A stretch of 64,000 bases of DNA from NCBI GenBank assembly GCA_017999365.1, contig JAGNLW010000002.1, positions 241,348 to 305,347 on the forward strand, written 5' to 3'. The notes under the pieces are model-generated. The model saw nothing but the letters and a program-made list of their open reading frames with translations, ran no database searches and was not told where the DNA came from. Positions 3,007-45,676 of the stretch are shown piece by piece; position 1 is the stretch's first letter; every line of letters begins with the position of its first letter. The position numbers were made by a program, and so were the translations under genes. The stretch is from Candidatus Aminicenantes bacterium (GTDB taxonomy: Bacteria > Acidobacteriota > Aminicenantia > Aminicenantales > Saccharicenantaceae).

Positions 3007-3900
3007 ATGTTCGGCAGCCTGCGCGAAAAACTGGCCCGGACCCGGAACTCCTTCCGGCGCATCGAGGACCTGTTCAAAAGCGGGCGCCGGCGCGACGAGA
3101 TCCTGGACGAGCTCGAAGAGGCCCTCATCCTCGCCGACGTCGGGGTGCCCGCCGCCGAACGCCTGCTCCGGGCCCTGCGGACGAAGACCCGCAAGGACGC
3201 CGACGAGGGCGAGCTCGACCGCGTCCTCAAGGACGAACTCGTCGCCCTGCTCTCGCCGCGGGCCGCCGCGCCGGGCCCCGCCGGGCCGGGGCCGCGGACC
3301 GTGCTCATGGTCGGCGTCAACGGCGGCGGCAAGACGACCTCGGCGGCCAAGCTGGCCGCGCTCTACAAGCGCGACGGCCGGCGGGTCGTGCTGGCGGCCG
3401 CCGACACCTTCCGGGCCGCGGCCCAGGAGCAGCTGGCGATCTGGGGCCGGCGGCTCGACGTCCCCGTCGTCCGCGGCTCCTACGGCGCCGACCCCGCGTC
3501 CATCGCCTTCGACGCAGCCCAGGCCGTCAAGGCCGGCAAGGCCGACGTCCTCGTCGTCGACACGGCCGGCCGCGTCCACACCAACGCCAACCTCATGGGC
3601 GAACTGGAGAAGGTCGGCCGCATCCTGGCCCGCGAGCTGCCCGGCGCCCGCCACGAGTCCCTGCTCGTCCTCGACGCCACGGTCGGCCAGAACGCCGTCG
3701 CCCAGGCCCGCGAGTTCCTGAAGTTCTCCGGACTGACCGGCCTCGTCCTGACCAAGATCGACGGCACCGCCAAGGGCGGCGCGGCCGTGGCCGTGGCCGT
3801 CGAGACGGGCCTGCCCATCCGCTACGTCGGCGTCGGCGAGGGCGAGGACGACGTCTACGAGTTCTCGGCCCGCGAGTTCGTGGAGGCCCTGCTGGCATGA
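3007..3900 (+). CDS. ftsY: Signal recognition particle receptor FtsY
   Basis: SRP-GTPase motifs are present: GVNGGGKTTSAAKLA, DTAGR and TKIDGTAKGG. Confidence 0.92.
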   Translation: MFGSLREKLARTRNSFRRIEDLFKSGRRRDEILDELEEALILADVGVPAAERLLRALRTKTRKDADEGELDRVLKDELVALLSPRAAAPGPAGPGPRTVLMVGVNGGGKTTSAAKLAALYKRDGRRVVLAAADTFRAAAQEQLAIWGRRLDVPVVRGSYGADPASIAFDAAQAVKAGKADVLVVDTAGRVHTNANLMGELEKVGRILARELPGARHESLLVLDATVGQNAVAQAREFLKFSGLTGLVLTKIDGTAKGGAAVAVAVETGLPIRYVGVGEGEDDVYEFSAREFVEALLA

Positions 3901-4997
3901 GCGCCGACCGCGACCGGGCTTGGATGGAGATGGCCTACGGCCTGGCCGGGAAGGGCCGCGGCCGGACCAGCCCCAATCCCCTGGTCGGGGCCGTCGTCGT
4001 CCGCGGCGGCGCGGCCGTCGGCCACGGCTTCCACGAGGAGGCCGGCCGGCCCCACGCCGAGGTCCTGGCCCTGGCCGCGGCCGGACGGAAGGCGGCCGGG
4101 GCGACCCTCTATCTGACCCTCGAGCCCTGCGTCCACTGGGGCCGGACCCCGCCCTGCGTCGACACGGTCGTCGCCGCCAAGCTCGGCCGCGTCGTCGTCT
4201 CGGCCGTCGACCCCAACCCCCTCGTCCACACGCGCGGCATCCGCCGCCTCCGGGAGGCCGGGCTCGACGTCTCGGTCGGGCTGCTGGCGGCGCGCAACGC
4301 CGTCCTCAACGAGGCCTACGCCAAGTTCATCGTCCGCCGCGTCCCGTTCGTGACGGTCAAGGCGGCCCTGTCGCTCGACGGCCGCGTCGCCTGCCGGACG
4401 GGCGACTCGAAGTGGATCACTTCGGCCGGGACGCGCGACTACGTCCACCTTCTCCGCGGCGAGCAGGACGCCATGCTGGTCGGTTCCGGAACGGTCCTGG
4501 CCGACGATCCCCTCCTGACCGTCCGCCACCCGGCCTGGCCGGAAAAGAAGCTGCTGCGGGCCGTCCTCGACGGGCGCCTGCGCGTCCCCGACGGGGCCCG
4601 GATATGGGGCACGCTCGACCGCGGCCCGGTCGTCCTTCTCGCCGGGCGCGAGGCTCCCGCCGCCCGGGCCCGGGCCCTCGAGGCCCGCGGGGCCGAAGTC
4701 GCCCGTCCGCCGGACGGGGCGGCGGCCTGGACGCTCCCCGCGGTGTTGGCCGAGCTCGGCCGGCGCGATATCGCCGCCCTCCTCGTCGAGGGCGGCTCAC
4801 GCGTCCTGACGTCCTTCGTCGAGGCCGGGCTGGCCGACAAGGCCGTCCTGACCTACGCCCCGCGACTGATCGGCGGGGAGACCGCGCCGGGCCTCGTCGG
4901 CGGCCCGGGCGCCGCCGCGGTCGGCCTGGCCGCGAAGCTCACGCGGACCCATTCCTTCGCCCTCGGGGACGACATCGTCGTGGAAGGATACTTCTGA
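3897..4997 (+). CDS. ribD: Bifunctional riboflavin biosynthesis deaminase/reductase RibD
   Basis: Has the deaminase zinc motif HAEV...PCVHWGRTPPC and a C-terminal reductase half. Its start forms an ATGA overlap with the ftsY stop. Confidence 0.92.
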   Translation: MSADRDRAWMEMAYGLAGKGRGRTSPNPLVGAVVVRGGAAVGHGFHEEAGRPHAEVLALAAAGRKAAGATLYLTLEPCVHWGRTPPCVDTVVAAKLGRVVVSAVDPNPLVHTRGIRRLREAGLDVSVGLLAARNAVLNEAYAKFIVRRVPFVTVKAALSLDGRVACRTGDSKWITSAGTRDYVHLLRGEQDAMLVGSGTVLADDPLLTVRHPAWPEKKLLRAVLDGRLRVPDGARIWGTLDRGPVVLLAGREAPAARARALEARGAEVARPPDGAAAWTLPAVLAELGRRDIAALLVEGGSRVLTSFVEAGLADKAVLTYAPRLIGGETAPGLVGGPGAAAVGLAAKLTRTHSFALGDDIVVEGYF

Positions 4998-5593
4998 TGT
5001 TCACCGGCCTCATCTCCCACCGGGGCGAGTTCCGCGGCTACCGCGAAGGCCGCAAGGCGCTGGCCCTGGCCTGCCCGGGCCTCGAAGGCCGCCTGGAGCC
5101 GGGCGGCAGCCTAGCCGTCAACGGCGTCTGTCTGACCCTGGCCGCCGCGGCCAAGGGCGAGTGGCGCTTCGACCTGTCCCGCGAGACCCTGGCCCGGACG
5201 ACGCTCGGCCGGCTGCGGCCCGGCGACCGGCTCAACCTCGAGCTGCCGTTGACCCTGGCCGCGCCCCTCGGCGGCCACCTCGTCAGCGGCCACGTCGACG
5301 GCGTCGGCCGGGTCCTCCGCCTGTCGGCCCGGCCGCCCGGCAAGCGCCTGGCCCTGTCCTTCCCGTCCGACCTCCGCCCCTTCTTCGTCGTCAAGGGCTC
5401 GGTCGCCGTCGACGGCGTCAGCCTGACGGTCGCCGCGCTCGGCCCGGCCTCGCTCGAGGTCGAGCTCGTCCCGCTGACGCTCGCCGGGACGAATCTCGGC
5501 GCCCTGCGCCCGGGCGCGGCCGTCAACCTCGAGTGTGACATGGTCGGGAAATACGTGTATAATTTCGTGTCCCGAACGACCCGGACGCGCTGA
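4997..5593 (+). CDS. ribE: Riboflavin synthase (alpha chain)
   Basis: This is the C-terminal part of track ORF 3920..5593. The ATG at 4997 overlaps the ribD stop. It has the MFTGLI start and two lumazine-binding repeats ([24 protein letters not shown]). Confidence 0.88.
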
Positions 5594-5610
5594 GAGAGGC
5601 CGCTGATCCC

Positions 5611-6828
5611 ATGACCGAAGACCGCCGCACCGCCACCGTCGAGGAGGCCCTGGAGGCCGTCCGCGCCGGCCGGATGATCATCATCGTCGACGACGAGGAC
5701 CGCGAGAACGAGGGCGACCTCATGGTCGCCGCCGAGAAGGCCACGCCCGACATCATCAACTTCATGGCCCGCGAGGCCCGCGGCCTCATCTGCCTGCCGC
5801 TGACGGGCGAGCGCCTCCAGGAGCTCAGCCTGCCGCTCATGGTCAGCGAGAACACGGCCCGCTTCCAGACGGCTTTCACCGTGTCCGTCGACGCCAAAGA
5901 AGGCGTGACCACGGGCATCTCGGCTCCCGACCGGGCCCGCACGGTCCTGGCCGCGGTCGACCCCCGGACGAAGCCCGAGGACCTGGCCCGGCCGGGCCAC
6001 GTCTTCCCGCTCCAGGCCAAGGAGAGCGGCGTGTTGACGCGGGCCGGCCAGACCGAGGCCTCGGTGGACCTGGCCCGGATGGCCGGGCTCTATCCCGCCG
6101 CGGTCATCTGCGAGATCATGGACGAGGACGGCACGATGGCCCGCCGGCCCCAGCTCGAGGAGTTCGGCCGGCGCTTCGGCATCCCCATCCTGACCATCGC
6201 CGACCTCATCCGCTACCGCATGCGCCACGAGACCCACGTCCGCAAGCTCGAGGAGACCGACCTGCCGACAGCCCACGGCCGCTTCCGCATCCACGTCTAC
6301 GAAGACACCATCCGCGGCGACCACCACGTCGCCCTGGTCAAGGGCGACGTCGCCGGCGGCGAGCCCGTGCTCGTCCGGGCCCATTCGCAGTGCCTGACCG
6401 GCGACACCTTCGGCTCGGCCCGCTGCGACTGCGGCGACCAGCTCCACATGTCCATGGAGATGATCGAGAAGGCCGGCCGGGGCGTCGTCCTGTACATCCT
6501 CAACCACGAAGGCCGCGGCATCGGCCTGGCCAACAAGATCCGGGCCTACGCCATCCAGGACAAGGGCCTCGACACGGTCGAGGCCAACCGCAAGCTGGGC
6601 TTCAAGCCCGATATGCGCGACTACGGCATCGGGGCCCAGATCCTGGTCGCCCTCGGCGTCCGCCGGCTGCGGCTCCTGACCAACAACCCCCGCAAGTTCG
6701 TCGGCCTGACCGGCTACGGCCTGGAGATCGTCGAGCGCGTCCCGCTCGAGATCGAGCCGAACGCCTGCAACCTGCGCTACCTCAAGACCAAGAAAGAGAA
6801 GCTGGGACACATCCTGGACCGGGTCTGA
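5611..6828 (+). CDS. ribBA: Bifunctional DHBP synthase / GTP cyclohydrolase II RibBA
   Basis: The N-terminal half carries [11 protein letters not shown]. The C-terminal half carries the zinc Cys motif [15 protein letters not shown]. Confidence 0.93.
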
Positions 6829-6830
6829 GG

Positions 6831-7346
6831 ATGGACCGCCCCCGCGCCCCCGAAGAAGCCGCCCCCTCCCCCGTCTGCCGCGCCTTCCTGCTCAAGTTCG
6901 GCCGGACCCCCGACCCGGCCCGGCGGCGGCGGATCCTGGCCGCCTGCATCAGGGCCGACAAGGCCTGGACCGAGGAGCTCCTCTGGGAATCCCTGGCCGA
7001 TCCCAACGAAGGCCTGCGGGACGCCGTCACCCGCGAGCTCTGCCGGCGCGGGACCCTGCGCCTCGAATGGGCCCTGCGGCGCCTGAGCCTGCCGCCCTGG
7101 TACGCCCGCAGCGCCGTGCTGGCCGTCATCGGGCGCCGCCGCATGCGCGAGGCGCTGGCGGGCGTCGGGGGAACGGTCGGGGACGCCAACGCCGACGTCC
7201 GCCGGGCGGCGGCCGAGGCCCTGGGCGAGATCGGCGGCGAGGAAGCCGTGCGCCTCCTCGTGCGGTTGAAGAAAGACGCCAATCCCTACGTCCGGGCGGC
7301 GGCGGAGGAAGCGATCGGCAAGACGAGCGGCGTGCGTTTCAGCTGA
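6831..7346 (+). CDS. HEAT-repeat (PBS-lyase-like) protein
   Basis: This is the in-frame tail of track ORF 6390..7346, starting at the ATG at 6831, 3 nt after the ribBA stop. Repeated units have the form D.N..VR.AAAEALGEIGGEEAV / DANPYVRAAAEEAIG. Confidence 0.6.
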   Translation: MDRPRAPEEAAPSPVCRAFLLKFGRTPDPARRRRILAACIRADKAWTEELLWESLADPNEGLRDAVTRELCRRGTLRLEWALRRLSLPPWYARSAVLAVIGRRRMREALAGVGGTVGDANADVRRAAAEALGEIGGEEAVRLLVRLKKDANPYVRAAAEEAIGKTSGVRFS

Positions 7347-7360
7347 CCGGCGTTCTATCA

Positions 7361-7696
7361 GATCTTCTCCCATTTCCGGGATTCCCTCTCGAGGCGGCGA
7401 GGGGATTGTTCTCGCAGATCCCCGTTGCTGGAGGAGGGGCGGCAGGGAGCGGAGCTTGCGAAGCGACCATCAGCAACGACCCGGAGCGACTCGAAGGGGC
7501 GTTGCTGGGAAATATCGTGAGAAAATGCTTTTCCGATATTTCGCAGGATCGGGACTACGGGGGCTCCGTCCCGATCCTGCCTGGTCCGCTCACCTGGGTT
7601 CGCTCCCCGTTCCCCGGGGGGCCGGGGAGCCAGAGGACATCCCCCGAGCGAAAGCCCGAGAGAGGGATTCCCCGGAATCTGGGGAAGAATCTTCTT
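7361..7696. repeat. Multi-hairpin intergenic element bounded by imperfect ~35-nt inverted repeats (MITE-like element, structured RNA or terminator array)
   Basis: The outer arms 7361-7394 and 7656-7696 are imperfectly complementary. The internal perfect stems are:
- 7401-06 with 7418-23
- 7423-30 with 7471-78 (7471-78 can alternatively pair with 7500-07)
- 7509-17 with 7534-42
- 7543-55 with 7568-80 (13 bp)
- 7602-09 with 7623-30. Confidence 0.4.
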
Positions 7697-7709
7697 CCGA
7701 ATAGTCCGG

Positions 7710-7892
7710 CTAAGAGGCGTAGCGGATATCCGAGCAAGCCTGGCAGCACATCGGGTTGGACGTGCAGTTGTCCTTGTGGTTGTAGGGCGCCACGGGCGGG
7801 GCCGTCGTGTGCTTGCAATGGCACAGGAGGGTCTCCTCGGGACGCCCCTTGAACAGGACGATGAGCTCAGGCGTCTTCCACGGCTTTTTCAT
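7710..7892 (-). CDS. Putative RiPP precursor peptide, 60 aa, six Cys
   Basis: Sequence: MKKPWKTPELIVLFKGRPEETLLCHCKHTTAPPVAPYNHKDNCTSNPMCCQACSDIRYAS. It has an ATG start, a GGAGGA Shine-Dalgarno about 9 nt upstream and its own promoter. It lies immediately downstream of radical-SAM/SPASM genes. Confidence 0.6.
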   Translation of the reverse strand: MKKPWKTPELIVLFKGRPEETLLCHCKHTTAPPVAPYNHKDNCTSNPMCCQACSDIRYAS

Positions 7893-7927
7893 GGCTCCAG
7901 ATCCTCCATAAACGCTTCCTTCTCAAT

Positions 7928-7956
7928 ATATTAGGCCGTTCGATCGGCCGTGTCAA
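7928..7956 (-). promoter_or_regulatory. Sigma-70-type promoter for the precursor peptide (TTGACA-N17-TAATAT)
   Basis: On the minus strand the -35 is at 7956-7951 and overlaps the upstream stop codon. The -10 is at 7933-7928. The 17-nt spacer contains the small palindrome GGCCG-N6-CGGCC (7935-7950). Confidence 0.5.
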
Positions 7957-9077
7957 CCGGATTTTAAGCCCTCCGCCCGGGCTTCGGCGACCCGGCAGAA
8001 CTCCTCGACCGGAAGGTCCAGCTGCCCCGTTTCCAGATAGGCGTGGGCCGGGCACCAGAGGCAGAGGTTCACGATCGGGCAGGCCCCGCACTTGTCCAGC
8101 CACTCCGCGCGGCCGGTCTCGCGGGCCAGGGCCCGGGGGAGAAATCGTGTCCAACCTTCGGACAGCCCGCCCTTCCTGAGGTCGTACAGGAAGTCGGGAT
8201 GGTGGAGGGACAGGCACGGGCGCATGAGGCCCTCCGGGCCGACGACGAAGCTGCGCTGCCCGACGCCGCAACGGAAGATGTGCCGGCAGATCTCGGCCGG
8301 CGCCTCGGCCTCGGGGCCGGGCAGGATCTCGCCGCAGGCCGCGGCCAGGGCGCCGAAGCGTTCGGGATCGGACCGCTCCAGCCGGGCCACCTCGCGGGGG
8401 CTGAGCCGCTCGGCCCGGATGAGGGCGTTGCGGGCCTCGTCGCGGTCGAACCGGAGGTGGAGCTGGGGATCGAACCGGTAGGGCTCCTTGGAATGGGCCC
8501 GGCAGAACTCGCCGATGGCGGCCATCTCGTGCTTGTTCGACCGCAGGGCCATGGCCTTGAGCCGGACCGTGACGCCGCCCGTGAGCAGTCGGTCGAGGCC
8601 GCGCCGGAAGGCCTCGAACGAGCCCGGCGCGCGGGTCACCCGCTCGTAGGTCTCGCGCGTCACGCCGTACACCGTGACCTCGACCTCGCGCGGCGGGTAC
8701 TTGCGGAAGAAGCGGACGTGCTCGTCGGTGACCAGGGCCGCGTTGGTGAAGAGCGACAGGACCAGGCCTTTGCTCAGGAGGGCCTGATAGACGTCGAAGA
8801 AGTCCTGGCGCAGGAGCGGCTCGCCGCCCGTGATCAGGCACCAGACCGCGCCGAGCGCGGTCGCCTCGGCCCCGATGCGGCCGATCTCGGCGGCCGAGAG
8901 CTCGCTCTTGCGGGCGGCCCGGTCGCCGGCCGGACGGGCGATGTAGCAGTGCCGGCAGTCGAAGTTGCAGCGCGCCGTGGCCTCGAGGTCGAAGCTGAAG
9001 ACGGCCCGGCCGGCCTCCATCTTGGACCACAGCCCGAACTCCGCGAGCGGGCGGCGGACGACGAAGCTCCCCGGCAT
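7953..9077 (-). CDS. Radical SAM/SPASM domain protein (paralogue 3)
   Basis: This is the tail of track ORF 7953..9482, starting at the ATG at 9077 (MPGSFVVRR...). It has the CNFDCRHC (CxxxCxxC) motif, GGEPLLR, and the SPASM-type CGACPIVNLCLWC. Only 1 nt separates it from the upstream gene. Confidence 0.85.
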   Translation of the reverse strand: MPGSFVVRRPLAEFGLWSKMEAGRAVFSFDLEATARCNFDCRHCYIARPAGDRAARKSELSAAEIGRIGAEATALGAVWCLITGGEPLLRQDFFDVYQALLSKGLVLSLFTNAALVTDEHVRFFRKYPPREVEVTVYGVTRETYERVTRAPGSFEAFRRGLDRLLTGGVTVRLKAMALRSNKHEMAAIGEFCRAHSKEPYRFDPQLHLRFDRDEARNALIRAERLSPREVARLERSDPERFGALAAACGEILPGPEAEAPAEICRHIFRCGVGQRSFVVGPEGLMRPCLSLHHPDFLYDLRKGGLSEGWTRFLPRALARETGRAEWLDKCGACPIVNLCLWCPAHAYLETGQLDLPVEEFCRVAEARAEGLKSG

Positions 9078-9078
9078 G

Positions 9079-9561
9079 TCAGGCCCTCCCCTCCCCGGCC
9101 CCGACGGCCCGCCGGACGCGGCGGACGAGCCGGGTGAAACCGGGACACCGCGACAGCCGGGCCGTGGCGGCGGCGAGGAGCGGCGGCGCGATGCGGAGGG
9201 CGCGGCCGCCGCGCTCGACGCCGACGACGAGGCCCAGCAGGGCCTCGCGGTCGAGAGCGCCGTCGGAGGCCAGGGCGTTGTCGCCCTTGACCAGGTAGCG
9301 GCCGGCCGCGGTCCCGACCACCCGGTGGAGGCGGACACCGCCGGTCGCCGCGTGGACGAAGGCGACGACGTCGCCCGTCCGCGGCCCGTCGTCCGCGAGC
9401 GGGGCGACGGTGACGACGTCCCCGTCCCGGACGGCGGGATACATGCTCGAGCCGCGGGCCTCGAACCGGAAGGGCTTGCCACGGCCGAGGACGTCCCGCA
9501 TCAGGCCGGCCAACGGATAGCCGTCCTCGAGCGCGGGGCGGGGGCGGGGCGACGGGTCCAT
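9079..9561 (-). CDS. S24/S26-family (signal-peptidase-I/LexA-like) Ser-Lys peptidase
   Basis: GSSMYPAVRDGDVV (Ser box) and YLVKGDN (Lys box) are present; 160 aa. Confidence 0.7.
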   Translation of the reverse strand: MDPSPRPRPALEDGYPLAGLMRDVLGRGKPFRFEARGSSMYPAVRDGDVVTVAPLADDGPRTGDVVAFVHAATGGVRLHRVVGTAAGRYLVKGDNALASDGALDREALLGLVVGVERGGRALRIAPPLLAAATARLSRCPGFTRLVRRVRRAVGAGEGRA

Positions 9562-9564
9562 AGC

Positions 9565-9870
9565 TCAGTCCTTGGCGACGATCATCCGCCGGTCGTAGAG
9601 CTCCTGCAGGAAGCCCACGACGTCGGAGGCGACCAGGCCGTCGGGCGCCTCGTATTCGGCCGTGAGCTCGCGGACGACCTCGGCCAGCGGCCGCGAGCCG
9701 TCGACGCGGTCCCAGACGGCCCGGGCCGTCTCGTTGAGAGTGAACAATTCGTCCTCGAGGTCCCCGATCCCCGAGGCCAGGGGCACGATGACGATCTCCC
9801 CCTCGATCTCCCGGACGACGACGTCCTCGGACGGCCCGTAGGTCTTGGCGAGATCGATCTTGTCGGTCAT
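9565..9870 (-). CDS. PqqD-family protein (RiPP recognition element-like)
   Basis: This is the tail of track ORF 9565..10992, starting at the ATG at 9870, which forms an ATGA overlap with the upstream stop. It is 101 aa: ...VVVREIEGEIVIVPL...LFTLNETARAVWDRVDGSRPLAEVVRELTAEYE..., a typical PqqD size and pattern. Confidence 0.8.
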   Translation of the reverse strand: MTDKIDLAKTYGPSEDVVVREIEGEIVIVPLASGIGDLEDELFTLNETARAVWDRVDGSRPLAEVVRELTAEYEAPDGLVASDVVGFLQELYDRRMIVAKD

Positions 9871-11042
9871 GGTCCGGTCCTCCTTTCCGTCCTCGATACG
9901 GGATCGCCGACGGTCCAGGCCTTCTCCCCCCGTTCGAGCAGGCCGGCGGCGACCGCCTGGGCGTGGGCCACGCCGCAGAAATATTCGACCGGCGTGTCCA
10001 GCGTGCCGTGCTCGGCCCAGGACTTCGCCGGGCACTGTTGGCAGAGCCCTTTGAGGAAGCACTTCGCGCACCGCGCCAGGTAGGCCGGGTCCGTCGCCCG
10101 GGCTTCGCGCAGGCGCGGCAGGAATTCCGTCACGGCCTCCCGGAGGGAGCCGCCGGACAGGTCGTAGACCGCGGCCGGATGGCGCAGGCCGAGGCAGAGC
10201 TGAAGCCGGCCGTAGGGATCGACCGCGGCCGAGCCGCCGGGGCCGTGGCAGGTGAAGAGCCGGTCGCCCGGCGGGCCGCCGGAGCGGGCCACGAACTCCC
10301 GCCATTCGCCGACGACGGCGTCGCCGCGGCGGCGGGCCAGGCGGACGAACTCGTCGGCGGTCGGGCGCAGGGCGGCGATGGCGGCGCTCTTGTCCCCGTC
10401 GCGGCGCGAGCGCAGGTCGAGGAGCGTGACGAGAGGGGGCGGGCCGGACTGCCCCGGCAGGCCGGCCGCCCAGGCCTCGAAGGCCTCGACCTCGCCGCGC
10501 GTCGGCGGCAGGACCGCGCCTTTGACGGCCACGGCCACGCCCGCGTCGAGCAGGCGCCCGAGACCTCTGCGGGCGGCCGCGAACGAGCCGCGGGCGCGGG
10601 TGACGGCCTCGCACGTCGCTTCCGTCATCCCGTAGACGGAGACCTCGACGGCCTCGAGCGGCGGCACCCGGGCCAGGAGCGCGGCCGTCTCGTCCGTGAC
10701 GAGCGCGGCGTTGGTGAACAGCATGATCCGCAGGCCGCGCCGGCGGGCGTGGAGGTAGATCTCGGCGAAGTCGTCGCGCAGGAGGGGCTCGCCGCCGGTG
10801 AAGCGGACGACGAGGCAGCCGAGCGCCGCGGCCTCGTCGAGCAAGGCCCGCCAGCGCGCCGCCGGCCACTCCCGCGAGCGGGCCTCGGCGTCCCCGGCCG
10901 GCCGGTTGACCGAGCAGTGGAGACAGTCGTTGTTGCACCGCTCCGTGAGCTCTATGTCGAGCCGTGTCAGCGCGGGCGCCTTGGCCGCCCACAGGCCGGA
11001 CCGGGCGGACGGGACCCGGCGGACGAACGCCTTCGCCGTCAC
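9867..11042 (-). CDS. Radical SAM/SPASM domain protein (paralogue 2)
   Basis: This is the tail of track ORF 9867..12302, starting at the GTG at 11042, which forms a GTGA overlap with the upstream stop. It has CNNDCLHC, GGEPLLRDDF and the SPASM-type CAKCFLKGLCQQC. It shares FTNAALVTDE with paralogue 3. Confidence 0.85.
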   Translation of the reverse strand: MTAKAFVRRVPSARSGLWAAKAPALTRLDIELTERCNNDCLHCSVNRPAGDAEARSREWPAARWRALLDEAAALGCLVVRFTGGEPLLRDDFAEIYLHARRRGLRIMLFTNAALVTDETAALLARVPPLEAVEVSVYGMTEATCEAVTRARGSFAAARRGLGRLLDAGVAVAVKGAVLPPTRGEVEAFEAWAAGLPGQSGPPPLVTLLDLRSRRDGDKSAAIAALRPTADEFVRLARRRGDAVVGEWREFVARSGGPPGDRLFTCHGPGGSAAVDPYGRLQLCLGLRHPAAVYDLSGGSLREAVTEFLPRLREARATDPAYLARCAKCFLKGLCQQCPAKSWAEHGTLDTPVEYFCGVAHAQAVAAGLLERGEKAWTVGDPVSRTERRTGP

Positions 11043-13015
11043 GGCCGCGCCTCCCCGGCCAGGAATTCGTCCAGGACGCCGGCGACGGCGCCGCCGCGGT
11101 CGAAGCTCAGCTCGTAGAACGGGACCTCGCGGACGATCTCGCCGGCCAGGTCGAGGGCCCGCTCCAGCCAATCGGCCGTGGTCAGCGGGCGGACGAGGCG
11201 GGGAAGGAAGCCGGCCAGGACGTCCCGGGTCCCCGGGAGCCGGTCGATCCGGTTCACCCGGGCCTGGCGCGGGAAGAAGACCGCCGCGACCGGCGCCGAG
11301 CCGGGCGAGACGCGGGGATCGTCGCCGTGGTTCCAGGTGCCGTGGACGCGCCAACCGCCCTCGCCGCGGCGGAGGGCGACCCGGTCGTCGCAGAGGACTT
11401 CGGCGCGGTCGCCGAGGAGCCCGACCAAGGTCGACTTCCCGGCTCCCGAAGCCCCCGCGAAAACGAGGCCCCGCCCGTCCACGGCGACGCCGGCGGCGTG
11501 CACGAACAGGCCGCCGAAAGCCGGCAGGGTCCGGGCCAGCACCAGCTGGTCCGAGGCCAGAAGGGCCAGGGAATCCAGCCCGCCGGCGCGGAAGGCCTCT
11601 TCGGACGGGTGGAAGATCCGGCCGCGGGTGTGCCCGTCGTCGAAGACCATGACCCGGCGGACCTCCCGGTCGTCCGGGCCCGGCGCGAGCATGAGGTAGA
11701 TCCACGAGCGGTCCCTGCGGTAGACGGCCCAGGGGGCGCGCCGGTAGACCTCGCGTCCGAGGTCCCGGCCCTCGAGGTCGGGCAGGGCGAAGTGGTGGCT
11801 CAGGACGACGTCGGCGGGCCCGCCGTCCGCGGGGGCCCGGAAGGCCGCGAACTTCGGGGCGAATGTCCCGTCCGTGATCGGCAGGTCGGACTCGACGTCG
11901 ACGGCCAGGCCGGCGATGCGGTAGCGCCGGCGGTGCCCGGCCGCCCAGGTCGTCCGGGCCCGGCGCGTCTCGCGGGCGATCTCGCACAGGGAGTCGATCT
12001 GGACCGAAGGATCGCGGTGCTCGAGCCAGGCGAAGACGGGGCACCACTTGCAGTCGGAGCGCAGCTCGCAGGCGCCGCAGCCCTCGCGGTAGGCCGGCGA
12101 CGGCGCGGCCGCGGCGGCCAGGGCCGGCAGTCGGTCCTCCCAGGCCTCGGCCAGCGGCGTCGTCCGCAGGTCGACGCGGAGCGCGGGGTCCTTGACGAAG
12201 GAGCAGAAGCTCAGCCCGCCGTACGGATCGACGTGGAAGTCGCGGCGGCCGGCCAGGCACGCGGCATAGAGCCCGGCGTCCGGCGCGGCGGCCGCGGCGC
12301 AATCGGCGTCGAAGCTTCCCTCGGGACCGCCGCCGCGGGCCGGGTCGAGCCCGACGACCTCGGCCGGCGAGAGTCGTTCGGCCGCGATCTCGCGGTCCTT
12401 GACCGCGTCTCCGGATGCGGAGAGATAGAGCCAGGTGGCTCCGATCCGCCAGCTCCGGCTCCAGGATCCGGCCAGCCGGACCATGGCCCCGTACTCGGGA
12501 AAATTCGTCCGCATGGGTACGACCTGGACGGTGAACGGGGTCCCGGCCTCGCGGAGACAGGCGACGCCTCTCGTCAGGGCCTCGAACGAGCCGGGGTTCC
12601 GGGTCACGGCGTCGTGGACGGCGGCGGTCGCGCCGTAGAGGGCGACGAGCAGGGTGCCCGGCCGCCGCAGCAGCCGGGCGATCGCCGGCGTGATCAGGCC
12701 GCCGTTGGTGTTCAGCGTGTACCAGACCGCGCGCTCCGTCAGGGCCTCGAAGATCTCAAGGAAGTCGGGCCGCAGCAGGGGCTCCCCGCCCGAGATGGCC
12801 CATTCGCGGCAGCCCAGGGCCCGGGCCTCGGCGGCGATACGGCGGATCTCCTCCGCCGTGAGCTCGGCGGCCCGTTCGGGGGCCCCGGGCGGCAGGCGCA
12901 GCCAGCAGTGGCGGCAGTCGTTCGCGCAGCGGTAGGTCAGGTCGATCGTCCCGCGCAGGGGCAGGCGCGGCAGGCTCTCGACCTTCTTCCGGGCGACGAA
13001 ACGGCTCATCGACAT
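11039..13015 (-). CDS. Fusion protein: radical SAM/SPASM domain (paralogue 1) + HPr-kinase-like P-loop domain
   Basis: The N-terminal part has CANDCRHC, GGEPLLRPDF and the SPASM-type CGACELRSDCKWC. The C-terminal ~280 aa contains GLVFAGASGAGKSTLVGLLGDRAEVLCDDRV, matching the HprK C-terminal pattern G.SG.GKS...L......L..DD.V. Confidence 0.8.
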   Translation of the reverse strand: MSMSRFVARKKVESLPRLPLRGTIDLTYRCANDCRHCWLRLPPGAPERAAELTAEEIRRIAAEARALGCREWAISGGEPLLRPDFLEIFEALTERAVWYTLNTNGGLITPAIARLLRRPGTLLVALYGATAAVHDAVTRNPGSFEALTRGVACLREAGTPFTVQVVPMRTNFPEYGAMVRLAGSWSRSWRIGATWLYLSASGDAVKDREIAAERLSPAEVVGLDPARGGGPEGSFDADCAAAAAPDAGLYAACLAGRRDFHVDPYGGLSFCSFVKDPALRVDLRTTPLAEAWEDRLPALAAAAAPSPAYREGCGACELRSDCKWCPVFAWLEHRDPSVQIDSLCEIARETRRARTTWAAGHRRRYRIAGLAVDVESDLPITDGTFAPKFAAFRAPADGGPADVVLSHHFALPDLEGRDLGREVYRRAPWAVYRRDRSWIYLMLAPGPDDREVRRVMVFDDGHTRGRIFHPSEEAFRAGGLDSLALLASDQLVLARTLPAFGGLFVHAAGVAVDGRGLVFAGASGAGKSTLVGLLGDRAEVLCDDRVALRRGEGGWRVHGTWNHGDDPRVSPGSAPVAAVFFPRQARVNRIDRLPGTRDVLAGFLPRLVRPLTTADWLERALDLAGEIVREVPFYELSFDRGGAVAGVLDEFLAGEARP

Positions 13016-13169
13016 AGTCCTCGTGTCCGGGGCAGACCCGTGCTCGCACGGGTACCCGTCCCCACTTTAGGGGGCCTGGATGCGTCCCGGCATGGCCGGG
13101 GCCGGGGAATCGGGGGATGATTTTCGGGAGCCCCGCCTCCCCTCGGGGGGTGAGACGGCGCGGCGGTCC

Positions 13170-13640
13170 TCACCCCTCGTCCGGACCGCCGGCGGCCTCC
13201 CGGCGCGAGTCGAGGATGAAGGTCACCGGGCCGTCGTTGACGATGTGGACGTCCATCGCGGCCCGGAAGACGCCCGTCTCGACCCGGGGACCGAGGGCCC
13301 GGAGGGCGGCCACGAAGGCCTCGAAGAGCTCGGCGGCGCGGCCGGGCTCCTCGGCGTCGTCGAAGCTCGGCCGGCGGCCTTTGCGGACCGAGCCGGCCAG
13401 GGTGAACTGGGAGACGGCCAGCGCCCCGCCCCCGGTCTCGAGCAGGGACAGGTTCATCTTGCCGGCCGCGTCGGGGAAGACGCGCAGTTCGGCGCACTTG
13501 CGGGCCAGACGGGCCGCGTCCGCCTCGCCGTCCCCCCGCTCGACGCCGACGAGCAGGCAGAGGCCCGGCCCGACGCGCCCGGCCGTCCGGCCGTCGACTT
13601 CGACGCGGGCGTCCTTGACCCGCTGGAGAACGATCCTCAT
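13170..13640 (-). CDS. dtd: D-aminoacyl-tRNA deacylase
   Basis: This is the tail of track ORF 13170..14141, starting at the ATG at 13640, which forms an ATGA overlap with the murJ stop. Motifs MRIVLQRV, SQFTLAG and NDGPVTF are present. Confidence 0.9.
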   Translation of the reverse strand: MRIVLQRVKDARVEVDGRTAGRVGPGLCLLVGVERGDGEADAARLARKCAELRVFPDAAGKMNLSLLETGGGALAVSQFTLAGSVRKGRRPSFDDAEEPGRAAELFEAFVAALRALGPRVETGVFRAAMDVHIVNDGPVTFILDSRREAAGGPDEG

Positions 13641-15217
13641 CGCGCCTCCTTGGCCTTCGCCCGTCTCATGAGCCCGGCCACGCTCTTGAGGTCGGCCGGG
13701 CTGACGAGCCGGAGCAGGCCCAGATAGATCAGGACGCCCGCGGCGATGGCCCCGGCCAGCGCCGCGGCCCGCGGGGCGAAGGCGGCCCCGTCCACCCCGA
13801 GCAGGGGCCAGGCCAGGCGCAGAAGGACGCCCATGGCCGCGGCCGCGGCGGCCGCGCGGACGGCCGAGGGGACCCAGGCGGCTTTCCCGGTCGGCCCGAT
13901 CTTCTTCTCCAGCCAAACGAGGAGGAGGCCGAAGTTGAGGACCTGGGAGAGCGAGAGGGCCAGGGCCAGGCCGCCGGCGCGGAGCCGGCCCATGAGGGCG
14001 AAGGACAGGGCGGCGTTGACGGCCATGACCGCGACGCCCAGGACGACGGGCGTCCGGGTGTCCTTGAGGGAGAAGAAGGCCGGGGCCACGACCTTGACTC
14101 CGGACACGAAAGGCAAACCGACGGCGAAAAAGAGCAGGCACGACCCGGCCAGGGCCGTCGAACCCGGGTCGAACCGGCCGCGCTCGAAAAGCGTGCGCAT
14201 GATGGGGGCGTTGAGGGCCATGAGCCCGGCCGCGGCCGGGAAACTGACCAGGGCCGTCAGCTTGAGGGAGAAGCCCAGGGTGCGCTTGAGCTCGCCGAGG
14301 TCGCGGGCCGCGACCTGCTCGGAGAAGGCCGGCAGCAGGGCCGCGGCCAGGGCGATGGAGAACAGCCCCAGCGTCAGCTCCTCGATGCGCGAGGCGTAAT
14401 AAAGGGCCGAGGCGCTGCCCTTCTCCAGGCCCGAGGCGAACATCCGGCTGAGGGCGAAGTTGATCTGGTAGACGCTGGCCCCGAAGACCCCGGGGACCAT
14501 CAGGCGGCCGACGCGGCGGACGTCCGGGTCGCGGAAGTCCGGGGCGAACCGGAAGCGCAGGCCCTCCTTATGGAGGAACGGGACCTGGAAGGCCAGTTGG
14601 AGGACGCCGCCGATGACGACGCCGGCGGCGAAGACGAGGGCCGGCTCCCTGGCCCCGCTCGCCCAGCCGGCCACGGCGGCGATGACGGCGGCGTTGAACA
14701 GGATCGGGGTCGAGGCCGGGACGAGGAAGCGGCCGCAGGCGTTGAGCATGCCCGAGGCCAGGGCGGCCAGGGTGATGAAGAAGAGATACGGGAACATGAC
14801 CCGGGTCATGTGGATGGTCAGGGGCCACTTGCCGGCGACGTCGCCGAAGCCGTAGGCGATGACTTTGACCAGTCCCGGGGCGACGACGACGCCCGCCGCG
14901 GTGACGGCGGCCATGACCAGGGCCAGGTCCCAGAAGGCGGCCCGGCCGAAGGCCCACAGCCGGGCCCGGTCGCCGGCCCGCCGGAGGCCGGCGAACGTCG
15001 GCACGAAAGCCGGTGTGAGGGCGCCCTCGCCGGTCAGACGGCGGAACAGGTTGGGAATGGTGTAGGCGATGGTGAAGGCGTCGGCGGCGTGCCCCGTCCC
15101 CAGGTAATAGGCCTGGAGGAGGTCCCGGACGTAGCCCAGGACCCGGCTGACCAGGGTCGGCCCGGCCACGGCGGCCGTCGAGCGGATCAGCCGGTCTCTC
15201 CGGTCGTCGCGGTCCAT
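13637..15217 (-). CDS. murJ: Lipid II flippase MurJ (MviN)
   Basis: Track ORF 13637..15277, a multi-TM MviN-like protein. I prefer the ATG at 15217 (MDRDDRRDRLIRST...) because 15249-15277 holds the divergent rpsT promoter. Confidence 0.87.
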   Translation of the reverse strand: MDRDDRRDRLIRSTAAVAGPTLVSRVLGYVRDLLQAYYLGTGHAADAFTIAYTIPNLFRRLTGEGALTPAFVPTFAGLRRAGDRARLWAFGRAAFWDLALVMAAVTAAGVVVAPGLVKVIAYGFGDVAGKWPLTIHMTRVMFPYLFFITLAALASGMLNACGRFLVPASTPILFNAAVIAAVAGWASGAREPALVFAAGVVIGGVLQLAFQVPFLHKEGLRFRFAPDFRDPDVRRVGRLMVPGVFGASVYQINFALSRMFASGLEKGSASALYYASRIEELTLGLFSIALAAALLPAFSEQVAARDLGELKRTLGFSLKLTALVSFPAAAGLMALNAPIMRTLFERGRFDPGSTALAGSCLLFFAVGLPFVSGVKVVAPAFFSLKDTRTPVVLGVAVMAVNAALSFALMGRLRAGGLALALSLSQVLNFGLLLVWLEKKIGPTGKAAWVPSAVRAAAAAAAMGVLLRLAWPLLGVDGAAFAPRAAALAGAIAAGVLIYLGLLRLVSPADLKSVAGLMRRAKAKEAR

Positions 15218-15248
15218 GGGTCGATGGTCCTCCCGGCCCCGGGGCCGT

Positions 15249-15277
15249 TTGACTTTGAGGCCCGGATATTCTATCAT
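15249..15277 (+). promoter_or_regulatory. Sigma-70-type promoter for rpsT (TTGACT-N17-TATCAT)
   Basis: ttgact at 15249-54 and tatcat at 15272-77. A GAGGAG Shine-Dalgarno lies at 15291-96 and the ATG at 15303. Confidence 0.5.
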
Positions 15278-41356: not shown

Positions 41357-43360
41357 ATGAAAACCACGCGAGATGAGTCTGAAGCGAAACTGCTTAAGTT
41401 GAGCTACTTCTTATATGCCGGGTTGCTCCTCACGGAATTGGCCGTCAAGGCTCTGGCGGTATACGGGATGTTTTCCGGTCACAAGGTGACATCCTCTATC
41501 GTTTCCAGGGCTGGCACCGGCTTATGGATGCTCATTTCACATCTCGTCCTTTATGCTATCAAGGTGTCCGCGATATATTTCGTTTTTGCCGTTCTTAACG
41601 CTCATTTCGTCCTCTCACTTGCTCGCTGGCTCTCCCAAAGAAAGCCACACTGGGGACCGTTCAAGGATATCTTGGCTTTTTTATCGGTCCACCTATCGTT
41701 CTTAGCCATCGTCTACGCCATTAATGCCTATTACTATCCTACTTCCGCATTAGCCTCCGGCATACCCGGATTCATCAAAGAAGGAACGGGACACACCGCA
41801 ATCGGCACGGTCCTCATGGGAATGTTAGCGTTCTATGCGGTGGTGTTCATCCTTTTTCTTCTGAATCTTCGCCGCAAAATATTGGCTTGGGCGGCGATTT
41901 CGCTGGTTGCGCTCCTGTTCCTGGCATCCCTCGATCCCGTGCACCTGGCCAAGGGGTTGTTCCCCCGTCCGGCAGCGAACCGTAACACAGGCCCCAACGT
42001 CGTCTTCATCGGCCTGGACTCGTTAAACCCCCTCCATACCGGATATTCGGGATATCCGTTGCCGATCAGCCCGAATCTGGATGCATTCCTTGAGAAAAGT
42101 CTGTACTTCAAGAACGCATACACACCGATCGCAAGGACTTTTCCGGCCTGGTACTCGATCTTGACCGGGCAGTATCCGAAGTCCTCGGGAGTCCGCCTCA
42201 ATCTCATGAAAAGGAAGTATATTAGATCCAAGGACCAATGCTTGGGTCACGCCCTCGGCCGCGAAGGCTATAAGACGCTTCATTTCACGGACGAGGTCCG
42301 GTTCAGCAACATAACGGCCGAAGACGGTTTCGACCATCTGGCCCATCCTCCGATGGGGATCTTGGATTTCGTCTTCGGGAGCATTCACGATTTCAGTCTC
42401 ACGAACGTTTTCTTCAACAACCCCCTCGGCTACGGCATCTTCCCTTTTCTTAAGAACAACCGGGCGGTATCCCATCTTTATGACGGGCGCTATTTTATGA
42501 ACTCGATCGAGGACACGATCGCGGCGCTAAAAAATGAGGAGAATTTCTTTCTGACGGTACACCTCTGCCTCGCCCACTGGCCCTATTTTCATGCGTCCCC
42601 ACACACCTTCGACCCCGTTCCCGGGACGGACCCCCAGATGTCCTTTTATGATTCCGCGGTATTCAAGGTCGATCAACAATTGGGCCGCATTCTGGGAGCC
42701 CTGCATCGCCATGGACTCTATGACAATTCGATCATCGTCGTGCTTTCAGACCACGGGGAATCCGTCGAGGGACATGGCTCGGATCTCAAGGAATCGGAGC
42801 AAAACCGGACGCTCCTGGCCTGGAAACCGACCGAGAACCTGCCGCATCGGGAGATCGACACTCTGGTCCGGACTATCGATATCGCGCCAACCGTCATGGA
42901 TTCGCTTGGATTGCCTCTGGACGGAATGAATTATGACGGCGCGAGCCTGCGCCCCCTTTTTACGACATCGGCTCAGTCGGAAGAAGCTCGGGATGAATCC
43001 GTGTTCATGGAGACGGAATTCTCGTTGGATACCCCGGGAGGGATCGGGCTTGCGGTACAATCCATGATCGAACAAGGGATAGATTTCTATGAATTCGATA
43101 AAACAGGCCTAATCACCGTTCGCGATGAATATCACGACATACTCATCCGGCGTCGGAACCGGGCCTTCCTGACGCCGGAATGGAAGCTGATCGCAGAAGT
43201 CCTTGTTCGGGGAGAAAAGGAGCGATTCCATTTTTCTCTATTCGACATCCGGAAGGACCCATCTTGCACGCATGATGTCGCCGACGAACACCCCGATATA
43301 TATAGCTATTTTTCCAATCGTATGCGCTCCTATTATGGACCTGAGATTGCCGGCAAGTAG
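41357..43360 (+). CDS. Membrane-anchored sulfatase/alkaline-phosphatase-superfamily protein
   Basis: The N-terminal ~190 aa is multi-TM. The sulfatase-type domain follows (VVFIGLDSLNPLHTGYSGYP, VVLSDHGES). G+C is visibly lower than in the flanks. Confidence 0.8.
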   Translation: MKTTRDESEAKLLKLSYFLYAGLLLTELAVKALAVYGMFSGHKVTSSIVSRAGTGLWMLISHLVLYAIKVSAIYFVFAVLNAHFVLSLARWLSQRKPHWGPFKDILAFLSVHLSFLAIVYAINAYYYPTSALASGIPGFIKEGTGHTAIGTVLMGMLAFYAVVFILFLLNLRRKILAWAAISLVALLFLASLDPVHLAKGLFPRPAANRNTGPNVVFIGLDSLNPLHTGYSGYPLPISPNLDAFLEKSLYFKNAYTPIARTFPAWYSILTGQYPKSSGVRLNLMKRKYIRSKDQCLGHALGREGYKTLHFTDEVRFSNITAEDGFDHLAHPPMGILDFVFGSIHDFSLTNVFFNNPLGYGIFPFLKNNRAVSHLYDGRYFMNSIEDTIAALKNEENFFLTVHLCLAHWPYFHASPHTFDPVPGTDPQMSFYDSAVFKVDQQLGRILGALHRHGLYDNSIIVVLSDHGESVEGHGSDLKESEQNRTLLAWKPTENLPHREIDTLVRTIDIAPTVMDSLGLPLDGMNYDGASLRPLFTTSAQSEEARDESVFMETEFSLDTPGGIGLAVQSMIEQGIDFYEFDKTGLITVRDEYHDILIRRRNRAFLTPEWKLIAEVLVRGEKERFHFSLFDIRKDPSCTHDVADEHPDIYSYFSNRMRSYYGPEIAGK

Positions 43361-44260: not shown

Positions 44261-45676
<1,416 letters not shown>

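Follow-up and report, generated by a model that had tools for sequence, protein, structure and literature searches.

A conserved fusion of a radical SAM/SPASM enzyme to an HprK-like ScmC domain in a predicted peptide-modification cassette of Candidatus Aminicenantes

HPr kinase homologues of paeninodin-type lasso peptide systems phosphorylate the C-terminal Ser of a linear precursor, sometimes several times (PMC8498205; PMC12639078), with little other sequence requirement, and their precursors across phyla share little but this C-terminal Ser (PMC8498205). Linear polyphosphorylated peptides (LPPs), described by Popov et al. (Nat Commun 2026) together with the proteins LppK, LppB, LppS, LppN and LppD, depend on an experimentally characterised core of a kinase, a discrete recognition element (RRE) for peptides that are made on the ribosome and modified after translation (RiPPs), and a signal peptidase I (SpI)-like peptidase: LppK polyphosphorylates one Ser, and LppS is a characterised RRE-dependent leader peptidase that needs LppB and cleaves the unphosphorylated precursor poorly (PMC13381572). 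Leader motifs are YxxP in LPPs and WxxP in paeninodin, both groups were described as Bacillota-restricted and patchy in distribution, with horizontal spread reported for LPPs, and the LPP paper makes no mention of radical S-adenosylmethionine (SAM) enzymes (PMC13381572). A further system, SynChlorMet (SCM), has a bioinformatic definition only and comprises ScmC (TIGR04249 / PF27840), the PqqD-like ScmD, and the radical SAM/SPASM enzymes ScmE and ScmF. To our knowledge, and going by its TIGRFAMs description, the SCM precursor has never been identified. Here we analyse a gene that joins a radical SAM/SPASM enzyme to an ScmC domain in one polypeptide, and the six-gene cassette that contains it, in a 64,000-nucleotide stretch of a Candidatus Aminicenantes genome (assembly GCA_017999365.1, contig JAGNLW010000002.1, positions 241,348 to 305,347; hereafter the window).

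The fusion gene is a single 658-amino-acid open reading frame (ORF) on the minus strand, with its ATG at 13015 and its stop at 11039; most orthologues start at MSRF, two codons downstream of the window ATG. A preliminary description of this DNA, made from the letters alone, had proposed a radical SAM/SPASM enzyme and an HprK-like P-loop domain in one polypeptide, and both halves are confirmed. The C-terminal string it quoted, GLVFAGASGAGKSTLVGLLGDRAEVLCDDRV, is present as residues 516-546 of the protein, and the radical SAM module that it placed at residues ~1-370 ends close to that estimate, at a boundary near residue 361/362. Its background statements, that HprK-related kinases occur beside PqqD proteins and phosphorylate the C-terminal Ser of some lasso precursors, are correct (PMC8498205; PMC13381572). 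In the N-terminal half, Pfam Radical_SAM (PF04055) matches residues 26-170 with 75.7 bits, well over its cutoff of 29.5 (E=6e-21). The seven invariant Cys of the SPASM-type region include a CxxCx5CxxC core, and Pfam SPASM (PF13186) scores 13.5 bits there, short of the required 21.5 (E=0.089). Structure matches of this half of the model are to SuiB, PqqE, SkfB, anSME and CteB (E 1e-10 to 1e-7), and among NCBIfam models it misses all curated family cutoffs, the best being MftC at 87 against 265 bits. The full-length model (predicted local distance difference test score, pLDDT, 85.5; predicted template modelling score, pTM, 0.81) has no disordered linker, and the last SPASM helix (residues 341-361) leads directly into the first strand of the ScmC domain (residues 362-367).

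The C-terminal half had been described as closely following the C-terminal pattern of HPr kinase/phosphorylase (HprK/P). PF07475, one of the searches suggested for it, gave no significant match on the fusion protein (E=0.079, 12.9 against 33.3 bits), and homology is therefore shown through local NCBIfam matches, profile searches and fold comparison. With the isolated C-terminal 288 amino acids of the fusion as query, NCBIfam models matched in the order TIGR04355 HprK-related kinase B (E=6.5e-11, 40.6-41.9 bits against a cutoff of 200; local, ~70 residues), TIGR04249 ScmC (E=1.2e-9, 38 bits against a cutoff of 125; domain residues 130-222), TIGR04352 HprK-related kinase A (E=1.6e-5, 24.1 bits against a cutoff of 200; local, ~35 residues) and TIGR00679 HprK/P (E=2.5e-3, 17.1 against 240 bits). 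The suggested HprK-related A/B models thus give local matches, but far under their 200-bit cutoffs. Pfam ScmC (PF27840), by contrast, has a precomputed match on a representative 100% identical to the window protein and on all listed orthologues, and ScmC is the label that PF27840 carries in the orthologous locus tables.

Fold comparison bears out the structural part of the preliminary description. An AlphaFold2 model of the C-terminal domain, built on 76 homologues, reaches a pLDDT of 95.3 and a pTM of 0.91, and its top Foldseek matches in the PDB are solely ATP-dependent phosphoenolpyruvate carboxykinases (PEPCKs; E~2e-6) and HprK/P, the latter from L. casei, M. pneumoniae and S. xylosus (1kkl, 1kkm, 2qmh; E from 6e-5, for L. 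casei, to 1e-3) with template modelling (TM) scores of at most 0.50 when normalised to the HprK domain. PEPCK and HprK/P share one common P-loop fold. At the sequence level, a ScmC profile run against PDB sequences aligns with 60 residues of L. casei HprK/P (E=0.0026); ABC transporters outrank HprK in this search, mostly over a 24-residue Walker A stretch and over at most 46 residues, and PDB searches with the domain or its core segment return mostly generic Walker A matches to RsgA and ABC transporters. The phmmer alignment to L. casei HprK/P (1jb1_A) covers 43 residues, from His506 to Leu548, with one single-residue indel, and spans the upstream His at which it begins, the P-loop and the acidic pair. 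From the alignment coordinates and the construct numbering, His506 presumably corresponds to L. casei His140. The C-terminal domain therefore belongs to the HprK/PEPCK P-loop superfamily, in the named family ScmC: the fold and motif arrangement of the earlier HprK/P reading stand, and bona fide membership of HprK/P or of the TIGR HprK-related A/B families is rejected, as the scores lie far under the cutoffs. On genomic context and scores we also reject the idea that the domain is a genuine HprK/P serving carbon catabolite control; it scores under every HprK-type cutoff and has a different N-subdomain, and its context is unrelated to the phosphotransferase system or to catabolite repression.

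Conservation of the putative catalytic residues was assessed in an alignment of 78 full-length fused orthologues and in a second alignment to which free-standing ScmC proteins were added. In the first, G516 is invariant along with the residues given in Table 1, and the His, Walker A, CDDR and GxWxHG positions are still invariant once the free-standing proteins join. The preliminary description had held that a Walker A-like stretch lacking conservation in orthologues would speak against it; invariance in the 78 orthologues and retention in free-standing homologues rule this out. Of 20 highly diverged fused proteins, 19 keep the P-loop, with the acidic pair varying only to DE, ED or EE, and in the remaining one (P0373) the P-loop, acidic pair and GTW motif are all gone. 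On these alignments the pattern is that of an active nucleotide-dependent enzyme and not of a scaffold, and the ScmC domain of the fusion is a predicted catalytically competent P-loop enzyme. An opposing explanation makes the domain a non-catalytic pseudokinase that scaffolds folding or binds the peptide or a partner, leaving the protein purely a radical SAM crosslinker. Sub-threshold kinase-family scores and the P0373 lineage, which keeps the domain and the whole cassette after losing its P-loop and acidic pair, are what such a scaffold could predict. However, the 78 orthologues, the free-standing homologues and 19 of the 20 divergent fused proteins show little or no variation at the Walker A Lys/Ser/Thr, at His506 and at the acidic pair, and the loss of motifs coincides with loss of the C-terminal Ser from the precursor described below, so that we consider a pseudokinase improbable.

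Both halves also occur together far beyond the window. In a whole-protein search, over 120 clusters formed at 90% identity were recovered; their members have 618-684 amino acids, nearly all ~650, with 97-100% query coverage and 57-77% identity, from Candidatus Aminicenantes, Aminicenantales, Acidobacteriota and Terriglobales. We pooled 80 metagenomic loci, retrieved with the precursor gene as anchor, with loci fetched earlier: in all 40 loci with a complete upstream region a single stop-to-stop ORF holds both halves, and in 39 of these the gene order is fusion, rSAM2, PqqD, peptidase, rSAM3 and precursor. Nine apparent exceptions comprise six that end at a contig edge and three true split systems from other lineages. 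The preliminary description had allowed that a sequencing frameshift might show two separate genes, and free-standing scmC genes do adjoin separate radical SAM genes in other lineages (L006, L008, L009, L090, L092). An assembly, sequencing or gene-calling artefact is nevertheless of negligible probability and a frameshift is ruled out, given the uninterrupted ORF in 40 of 40 independent complete loci from many samples, its recurrence in the clusters and in divergent representatives, and the confident, linker-free passage of the SPASM helix into ScmC in the model. We are thus highly confident of the architecture itself, a radical SAM/SPASM enzyme and an ScmC domain in one conserved polypeptide.

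To place the fusion within its family, we used a profile search of 1.84 billion representatives, which yielded 411 ScmC-like proteins at E≤1e-30; fused forms of 570-680 amino acids make up about 20 of the best 150 of these. Free-standing ScmC proteins (~300 amino acids, 40-50% identical over the entire domain) form the majority, and in two loci (L008 and L009) a separate radical SAM gene lies directly upstream of scmC, an arrangement that would give rise to a fusion. The N-terminal domains of all 20 divergent fused proteins score 141-389 bits against the radical SAM half of the fusion versus 72-189 against rSAM2/rSAM3, and since all 20 are nearest to the former, the data fit one ancient fusion into a distinct radical SAM subfamily. 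A scan of species genomes with the ScmC alignment found at least three distant loci. The preliminary description knew of no characterised example of such a fusion: we likewise found no characterising paper, but the fused architecture is common in sequence databases.

Table 1 Features of the cassette and of two divergent fused loci (window positions, except for L094 and L095, which have their own numbering).
Feature	Position	Strand	Basis or remark
Fusion gene, 658 aa	11039..13015	-	Radical SAM/SPASM, residues 1-361, plus ScmC, HprK/PEPCK-fold P-loop domain, residues 362-658
Radical SAM cluster motif C30-x3-C34-x2-C37 (CANDCRHC)	12905..12928	-	Invariant, 78 orthologues
Putative SPASM auxiliary-cluster region, C253, C271, C313, C316, C322, C325, C344	11984..12259	-	7 invariant Cys
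ScmC domain, residues 362-655	11051..11932	-	Beta-rich N-subdomain, then P-loop subdomain; model, Foldseek, homologues
His506, upstream of the P-loop where HprK/P has its active-site His	11498..11500	-	Invariant
Walker A G521-A-S-G-A-G526-K527-S528-T529	11429..11455	-	G521, G526, K527, S528, T529 invariant
Acidic pair C542-D543-D544-R545, counterpart of HprK 'ADD'	11381..11392	-	At least 90% in fused orthologues
ScmC-family signature G559-T-W-N-H563-G564	11324..11341	-	H563 invariant, G559-T-W at least 90% conserved
rSAM2, second radical SAM/SPASM paralogue, 391 aa	9867..11042	-	GTG start overlaps fusion stop (GTGA)
PqqD-family discrete RRE, 101 aa	9565..9870	-	Pfam PqqD E=5e-16; ATGA overlap with rSAM2
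Archaeal/endoplasmic reticulum-type signal-peptidase-like (S24/S26) protease, 160 aa, putative leader peptidase	9079..9561	-	TIGR02228 sigpep_I_arch, Peptidase_S24
rSAM3, third radical SAM/SPASM paralogue, 374 aa	7953..9077	-	Domain matches
Sigma-70-like promoter TTGACA-17-TAATAT	7928..7956	-	Directly upstream of precursor gene
Precursor peptide gene, 60 aa: leader W5xxP8xL10...P18-E-E, Cys-rich core, Ser60	7710..7892	-	66 distinct orthologous peptides
L095, three precursor genes	3392-3607, 7340-7519, 7530-7706		
L094, precursor gene and degenerate fused homologue	3837-4028 and 4494-6458	- and +	Precursor divergently encoded upstream of the fused gene

The fusion is the first gene of a tightly packed, minus-strand operon of six genes, which further encodes two radical SAM/SPASM enzymes, a PqqD-family RRE, a signal-peptidase-like protease and a candidate precursor (Table 1). 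At 35-42% identity the three radical SAM enzymes are paralogues of one another, and CxxxCxxC and seven SPASM Cys recur in every one of them. The protease matches TIGR02228 best (E=3.7e-8), followed by Peptidase_S24 (E=7e-5), and carries S39 (GSSMYP), H79 (LHRVV) and D94/D100. The precursor gene has a promoter of its own, in the short gap after rSAM3 and followed by a GGAGG Shine-Dalgarno sequence; no other promoter match occurs in the 6 kb of the cassette, where chance would give 0.1, and its -35 element and TAnnAT are invariant in five orthologous loci whose enzymes are 57-77% identical. The gaps upstream of the precursor in L001, L002, L004 and L005 carry this promoter as well. A conserved promoter of its own argues that the 60-amino-acid ORF is a real, separately expressed gene, as would be the case for a RiPP precursor, and the precursor is probably transcribed apart from, and more strongly than, the enzyme genes.

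The position of the cassette is identical in the window and in 4 of 4 distinct orthologous loci (L001, L002/L003, L004, L005). Flanking it (window 5611-15277; L001-L005) are dtd on one side, with murJ, rpsT, holA, lptE and leuS beyond, and on the other a convergent HEAT-repeat gene and a ribBA/ribE/ribD operon. This fixed position, kept while the enzymes have diverged to 57-77% identity, indicates vertical inheritance. RiPP clusters are seldom so strictly syntenic, which suggests a possible housekeeping function. A tblastn search with four NTP_transf_5 and two exporter queries detected neither an NTP_transf_5 gene nor an exporter in the window, L001, L004 or L005, matching solely unrelated ABC nucleotide-binding domains; both an NTP_transf_5 gene and an ABC exporter regularly accompany free-standing ScmC clusters (L006, L090, L091, L092). 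The same two partners serve lasso and LPP systems in glycosylating phospho-Ser and in export. Domain scans of the six cassette genes, and the syntenic loci, contain no lasso cyclase or B2 peptidase domain. Elsewhere, the 64-kb window has no tRNA gene or Rfam family at threshold, and no FMN (flavin mononucleotide) riboswitch at threshold despite the riboflavin operon to the left of the cassette. A low-GC stretch at 41357-43360 on the plus strand (~0.55 against ~0.70 for the window) encodes a 667-amino-acid sulfatase-family protein of the lipoteichoic acid synthase / phosphoethanolamine-transferase type, which may be a horizontally acquired envelope gene, and a sigma-54-dependent response regulator lies at 44261-45676 on the minus strand.

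The candidate precursor belongs to a family of 66 distinct orthologous peptides, of which 65 have 60 amino acids and one has 59. Across the 65 unique 60-mers the invariant positions of the putative leader are M1, W5, P8, L10, L13, F14, G16, R17, P18, E19, E20 and L23, and those beyond it are C26, K27, P36, C43, C50, C53 and S60; the non-leader part (residues 24-60) has a mean identity of 64%. All 66 precursors of the clade end in Ser, and Ser60 is the sole invariant hydroxyl residue. NCBIfam holds no model for this family, and its lasso leader matches are insignificant (E 0.05-0.6). Precursors beside free-standing ScmC genes, from a Leptolinea metagenome-assembled genome (MAG), a Clostridia MAG, a Planctomycetota MAG and others, share the leader W-x-x-P-x-L…P-E-E-x-V-L-x-x-C-K, have unrelated cores, and end in Ser in 6 of 8 candidates. 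At L095, which encodes the very divergent fused protein P0277 with its motifs intact, 3 of 3 precursors likewise end in Ser; two further radical SAM enzymes are present there and no PqqD or S24 peptidase is recognisable among the called genes, and the RRE and protease may lie elsewhere or be too divergent for detection. The locus of the EE variant P0329 (L096) ends at a contig edge, where the precursor is not readable.

A counterpart is provided by L094, where the motif-less P0373 lacks a Pfam ScmC match and retains the rSAM2-PqqD-S24-rSAM3 cassette. Its WxxP-leader precursor ends in …AQGM, with Met and not Ser; an ABC exporter and a sigma-54 activator adjoin this cassette. Intact kinase motifs thus co-vary with the C-terminal Ser. 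At L093 (6699-9222), ScmC stands between two PqqD genes (PqqD-ScmC-PqqD) with a 49-amino-acid ORF and an ABC exporter and without any radical SAM enzyme, which argues for a catalytic role of ScmC itself. Genes for polysaccharide export and chain length (Wzy_C, Poly_export, Wzz/GNVR) surround this locus, and a PEP-CTERM domain protein is encoded close by, a setting that recalls reports of LPP clusters lying together with loci for capsular polysaccharide.

Taken together, the locus is best read, with somewhat better than even confidence, as encoding a bifunctional RiPP maturase in which radical SAM crosslinking is coupled to phosphorylation of a C-terminal Ser; the invariant C-terminal Ser and the one case of motif loss lend this indirect support. 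PqqD would recognise the leader through W5xxP8xL10 and hand the peptide over to the enzymes. The radical SAM/SPASM domain of the fusion would install a crosslink in the Cys-rich core of the 60-amino-acid precursor, and the three radical SAM/SPASM enzymes together would install crosslinks involving the four invariant Cys, with thioethers the obvious candidates. The ScmC domain, which probably phosphorylates the precursor, would move a phosphate from ATP to Ser60 like the HprK kinases of lasso peptides, although our choice of Ser60 as the site is tentative and its chance a little short of even. The soluble SpI-like protease would cut off the leader after a small residue (T, A or S) at position 21, by analogy with cleavage between FET and xxS in LPPs, and modification may gate this cleavage. 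With both domains in one protein, phosphorylation and one of the crosslinking steps would be coupled, or put in sequence, on a single bound substrate.

Doubt about the site stems in part from LPPs, as LppK acts on core Ser3 and not on the C-terminus (PMC13381572). The kinase domain might instead target another position of the precursor, such as Thr7 (present in 62 of 65 precursors), residue 21 (T, A or S) or a variable core Ser/Thr, or else another protein or a small molecule. We give such other targets little credence: Ser60 is the only hydroxyl residue without variation, a C-terminal Ser recurs in distant ScmC-associated precursors with unrelated cores, and Cys, Thr or Val occupies position +3 counted from the predicted cleavage site.

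ScmC might also bind a nucleoside triphosphate (NTP) with no phosphate kept on the product, either by a transient, activating phosphorylation in which phosphate serves, for example, as a leaving group in an elimination or crosslinking reaction, or by working as a clamp or chaperone, powered by NTP, on which the C-terminus of the peptide docks and which sets the order of action of the three radical SAM enzymes. The linker-free fusion, whose pTM of 0.81 is compatible with a fixed two-domain assembly, would suit this, as would a fused cassette without the NTP-transferase that builds on phospho-Ser in related systems, and LPP phosphorylation gates leader cleavage and hence has a control function there (PMC13381572). 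All characterised HprK-like RiPP kinases, however, leave stable phosphates or polyphosphates (PMC13381572; PMC8498205), and the cassette has no lyase or other phosphate-eliminating enzyme; we judge this alternative unlikely.

Several observations weigh against crosslinking coupled to C-terminal phosphorylation. Every curated kinase-family score lies far under its cutoff (PF07475, TIGR04355, TIGR04249), and the likeness of the modelled ScmC domain to PEPCK and HprK structures is modest, with TM scores of 0.3-0.5. We found no biochemical evidence for any ScmC protein in the literature, and the phospho-Ser of LPPs is at core position 3, not at the C-terminus (PMC13381572). The case that pairs motif loss with a Met-ending precursor, L094, is a single observation, and candidate peptides at L006 and L093, where free-standing ScmC has an intact P-loop, lack a terminal Ser, with the peptide calls there being uncertain. 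The invariant C-terminal Ser could instead be needed by one of the radical SAM enzymes.

Comparison with described systems places the cassette between several of them. Its parts correspond to those of SCM: an HprK-like ScmC domain stands together with a PqqD-family protein and more than one PqqE-like radical SAM/SPASM enzyme, and its proteins give local hidden Markov model matches to ScmC, ScmD, ScmE and ScmF. All of these remain under the equivalog cutoffs (ScmC 38 against 125 bits, ScmD 22.1 against 100, and ScmE/ScmF 58-81 against 400 for all three radical SAM enzymes), and the window differs further in its radical SAM-fused ScmC, its three radical SAM enzymes, its signal-peptidase-like protease and its candidate precursor. 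Judged by these scores, the cassette is analogous to SCM in composition and does not belong to the same families. With LPPs it shares an HprK-like kinase domain, here likened to LppK by description, a discrete RRE, an archaeal-type SpI-like peptidase and a [Y/W]xxPx[L/V] leader. LPPs, by contrast, are linear and made without radical SAM enzymes, with the leader YxxPxVLxHQxIxFETxxS versus WxxPxL...GxPEE in the window, which adds three radical SAM/SPASM enzymes, a fused kinase and a C-terminal Ser, lacks the NTP-transferase and the MsbA-like exporter, and has its cassette inherited at a fixed syntenic site in Acidobacteriota/Aminicenantes.

Paeninodin-type systems (PadeK, ThcoK, SyanK) resemble the window in the WxxP motif and invariant C-terminal Ser of its precursors, PadeK and ScmC being compared here by description; they differ in that the cassette lacks the lasso cyclase (C) and B2 peptidase and has radical SAM/SPASM crosslinkers, one of them fused to the kinase. 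To HprK/P and ATP-dependent PEPCK the ScmC domain is linked by the P-loop fold, the arrangement of His, Walker A and acidic pair, and the aligned stretch H506-L548. The RiPP radical SAM/SPASM maturases SuiB, PqqE, SkfB, CteB and MftC, finally, share with the fusion CxxxCxxC, a 7-Cys SPASM-type pattern and a PqqD partner, but none of them has a kinase domain. By gene content and motifs, the cassette would thus combine the LPP trio of kinase, RRE and SpI with the WxxP/C-terminal-Ser logic of paeninodin and three radical SAM/SPASM enzymes.

This is not a categorically new system: earlier work already knows the ScmC family and SCM-type cassettes, as well as HprK-like RiPP kinases and the module of kinase, RRE and SpI. 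Our literature searches found no paper on ScmC or SynChlorMet and nothing relevant on HPr kinase together with radical SAM and PqqD. Nor did we find in the literature a description of the radical SAM-kinase fusion as a conserved subfamily, of an LPP-type module merged with multi-radical SAM crosslinking, of a precursor family with an invariant C-terminal Ser, or of a fixed core-genome location in Acidobacteriota/Aminicenantes without an exporter. Peptide phosphorylation is rare in natural-product biosynthesis, and the characterised HprK-like RiPP kinases (lasso, LPP) are stand-alone enzymes with no reported radical SAM partners. The window locus joins a kinase, RRE and signal-peptidase-like module to radical SAM enzymes, with the kinase fused to one of them in a large and ancient subfamily. 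It also supplies, for SCM-like and ScmC systems, a family of candidate precursors with a WxxPxL…PEE leader and a C-terminal Ser, a predicted substrate residue in Ser60, and a compact six-gene operon suited to heterologous expression.

A more speculative proposal, to which we assign a low probability, concerns the product. Rather than a variable antibiotic, it may be a conserved, vertically inherited, crosslinked and phosphorylated peptide-derived molecule with a housekeeping role in Aminicenantes/Acidobacteriota, in the manner of pyrroloquinoline quinone (PQQ) or mycofactocin; it could act as a cofactor or redox carrier or bind metal, for example, with the kinase as an obligatory checkpoint that orders the three radical SAM reactions. 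Hints in this direction are the fixed site between dtd and the riboflavin operon held by enzymes 57-77% identical, the near-fixed precursor length (60 amino acids in 65 of 66) with a 64% identical non-leader part, and the absence of an exporter, immunity gene and NTP-transferase. If true, the checkpoint would make this the first radical SAM-kinase bifunctional RiPP maturase, and a cofactor-like product in Aminicenantes would interest physiologists more widely, as most of this lineage is uncultured.

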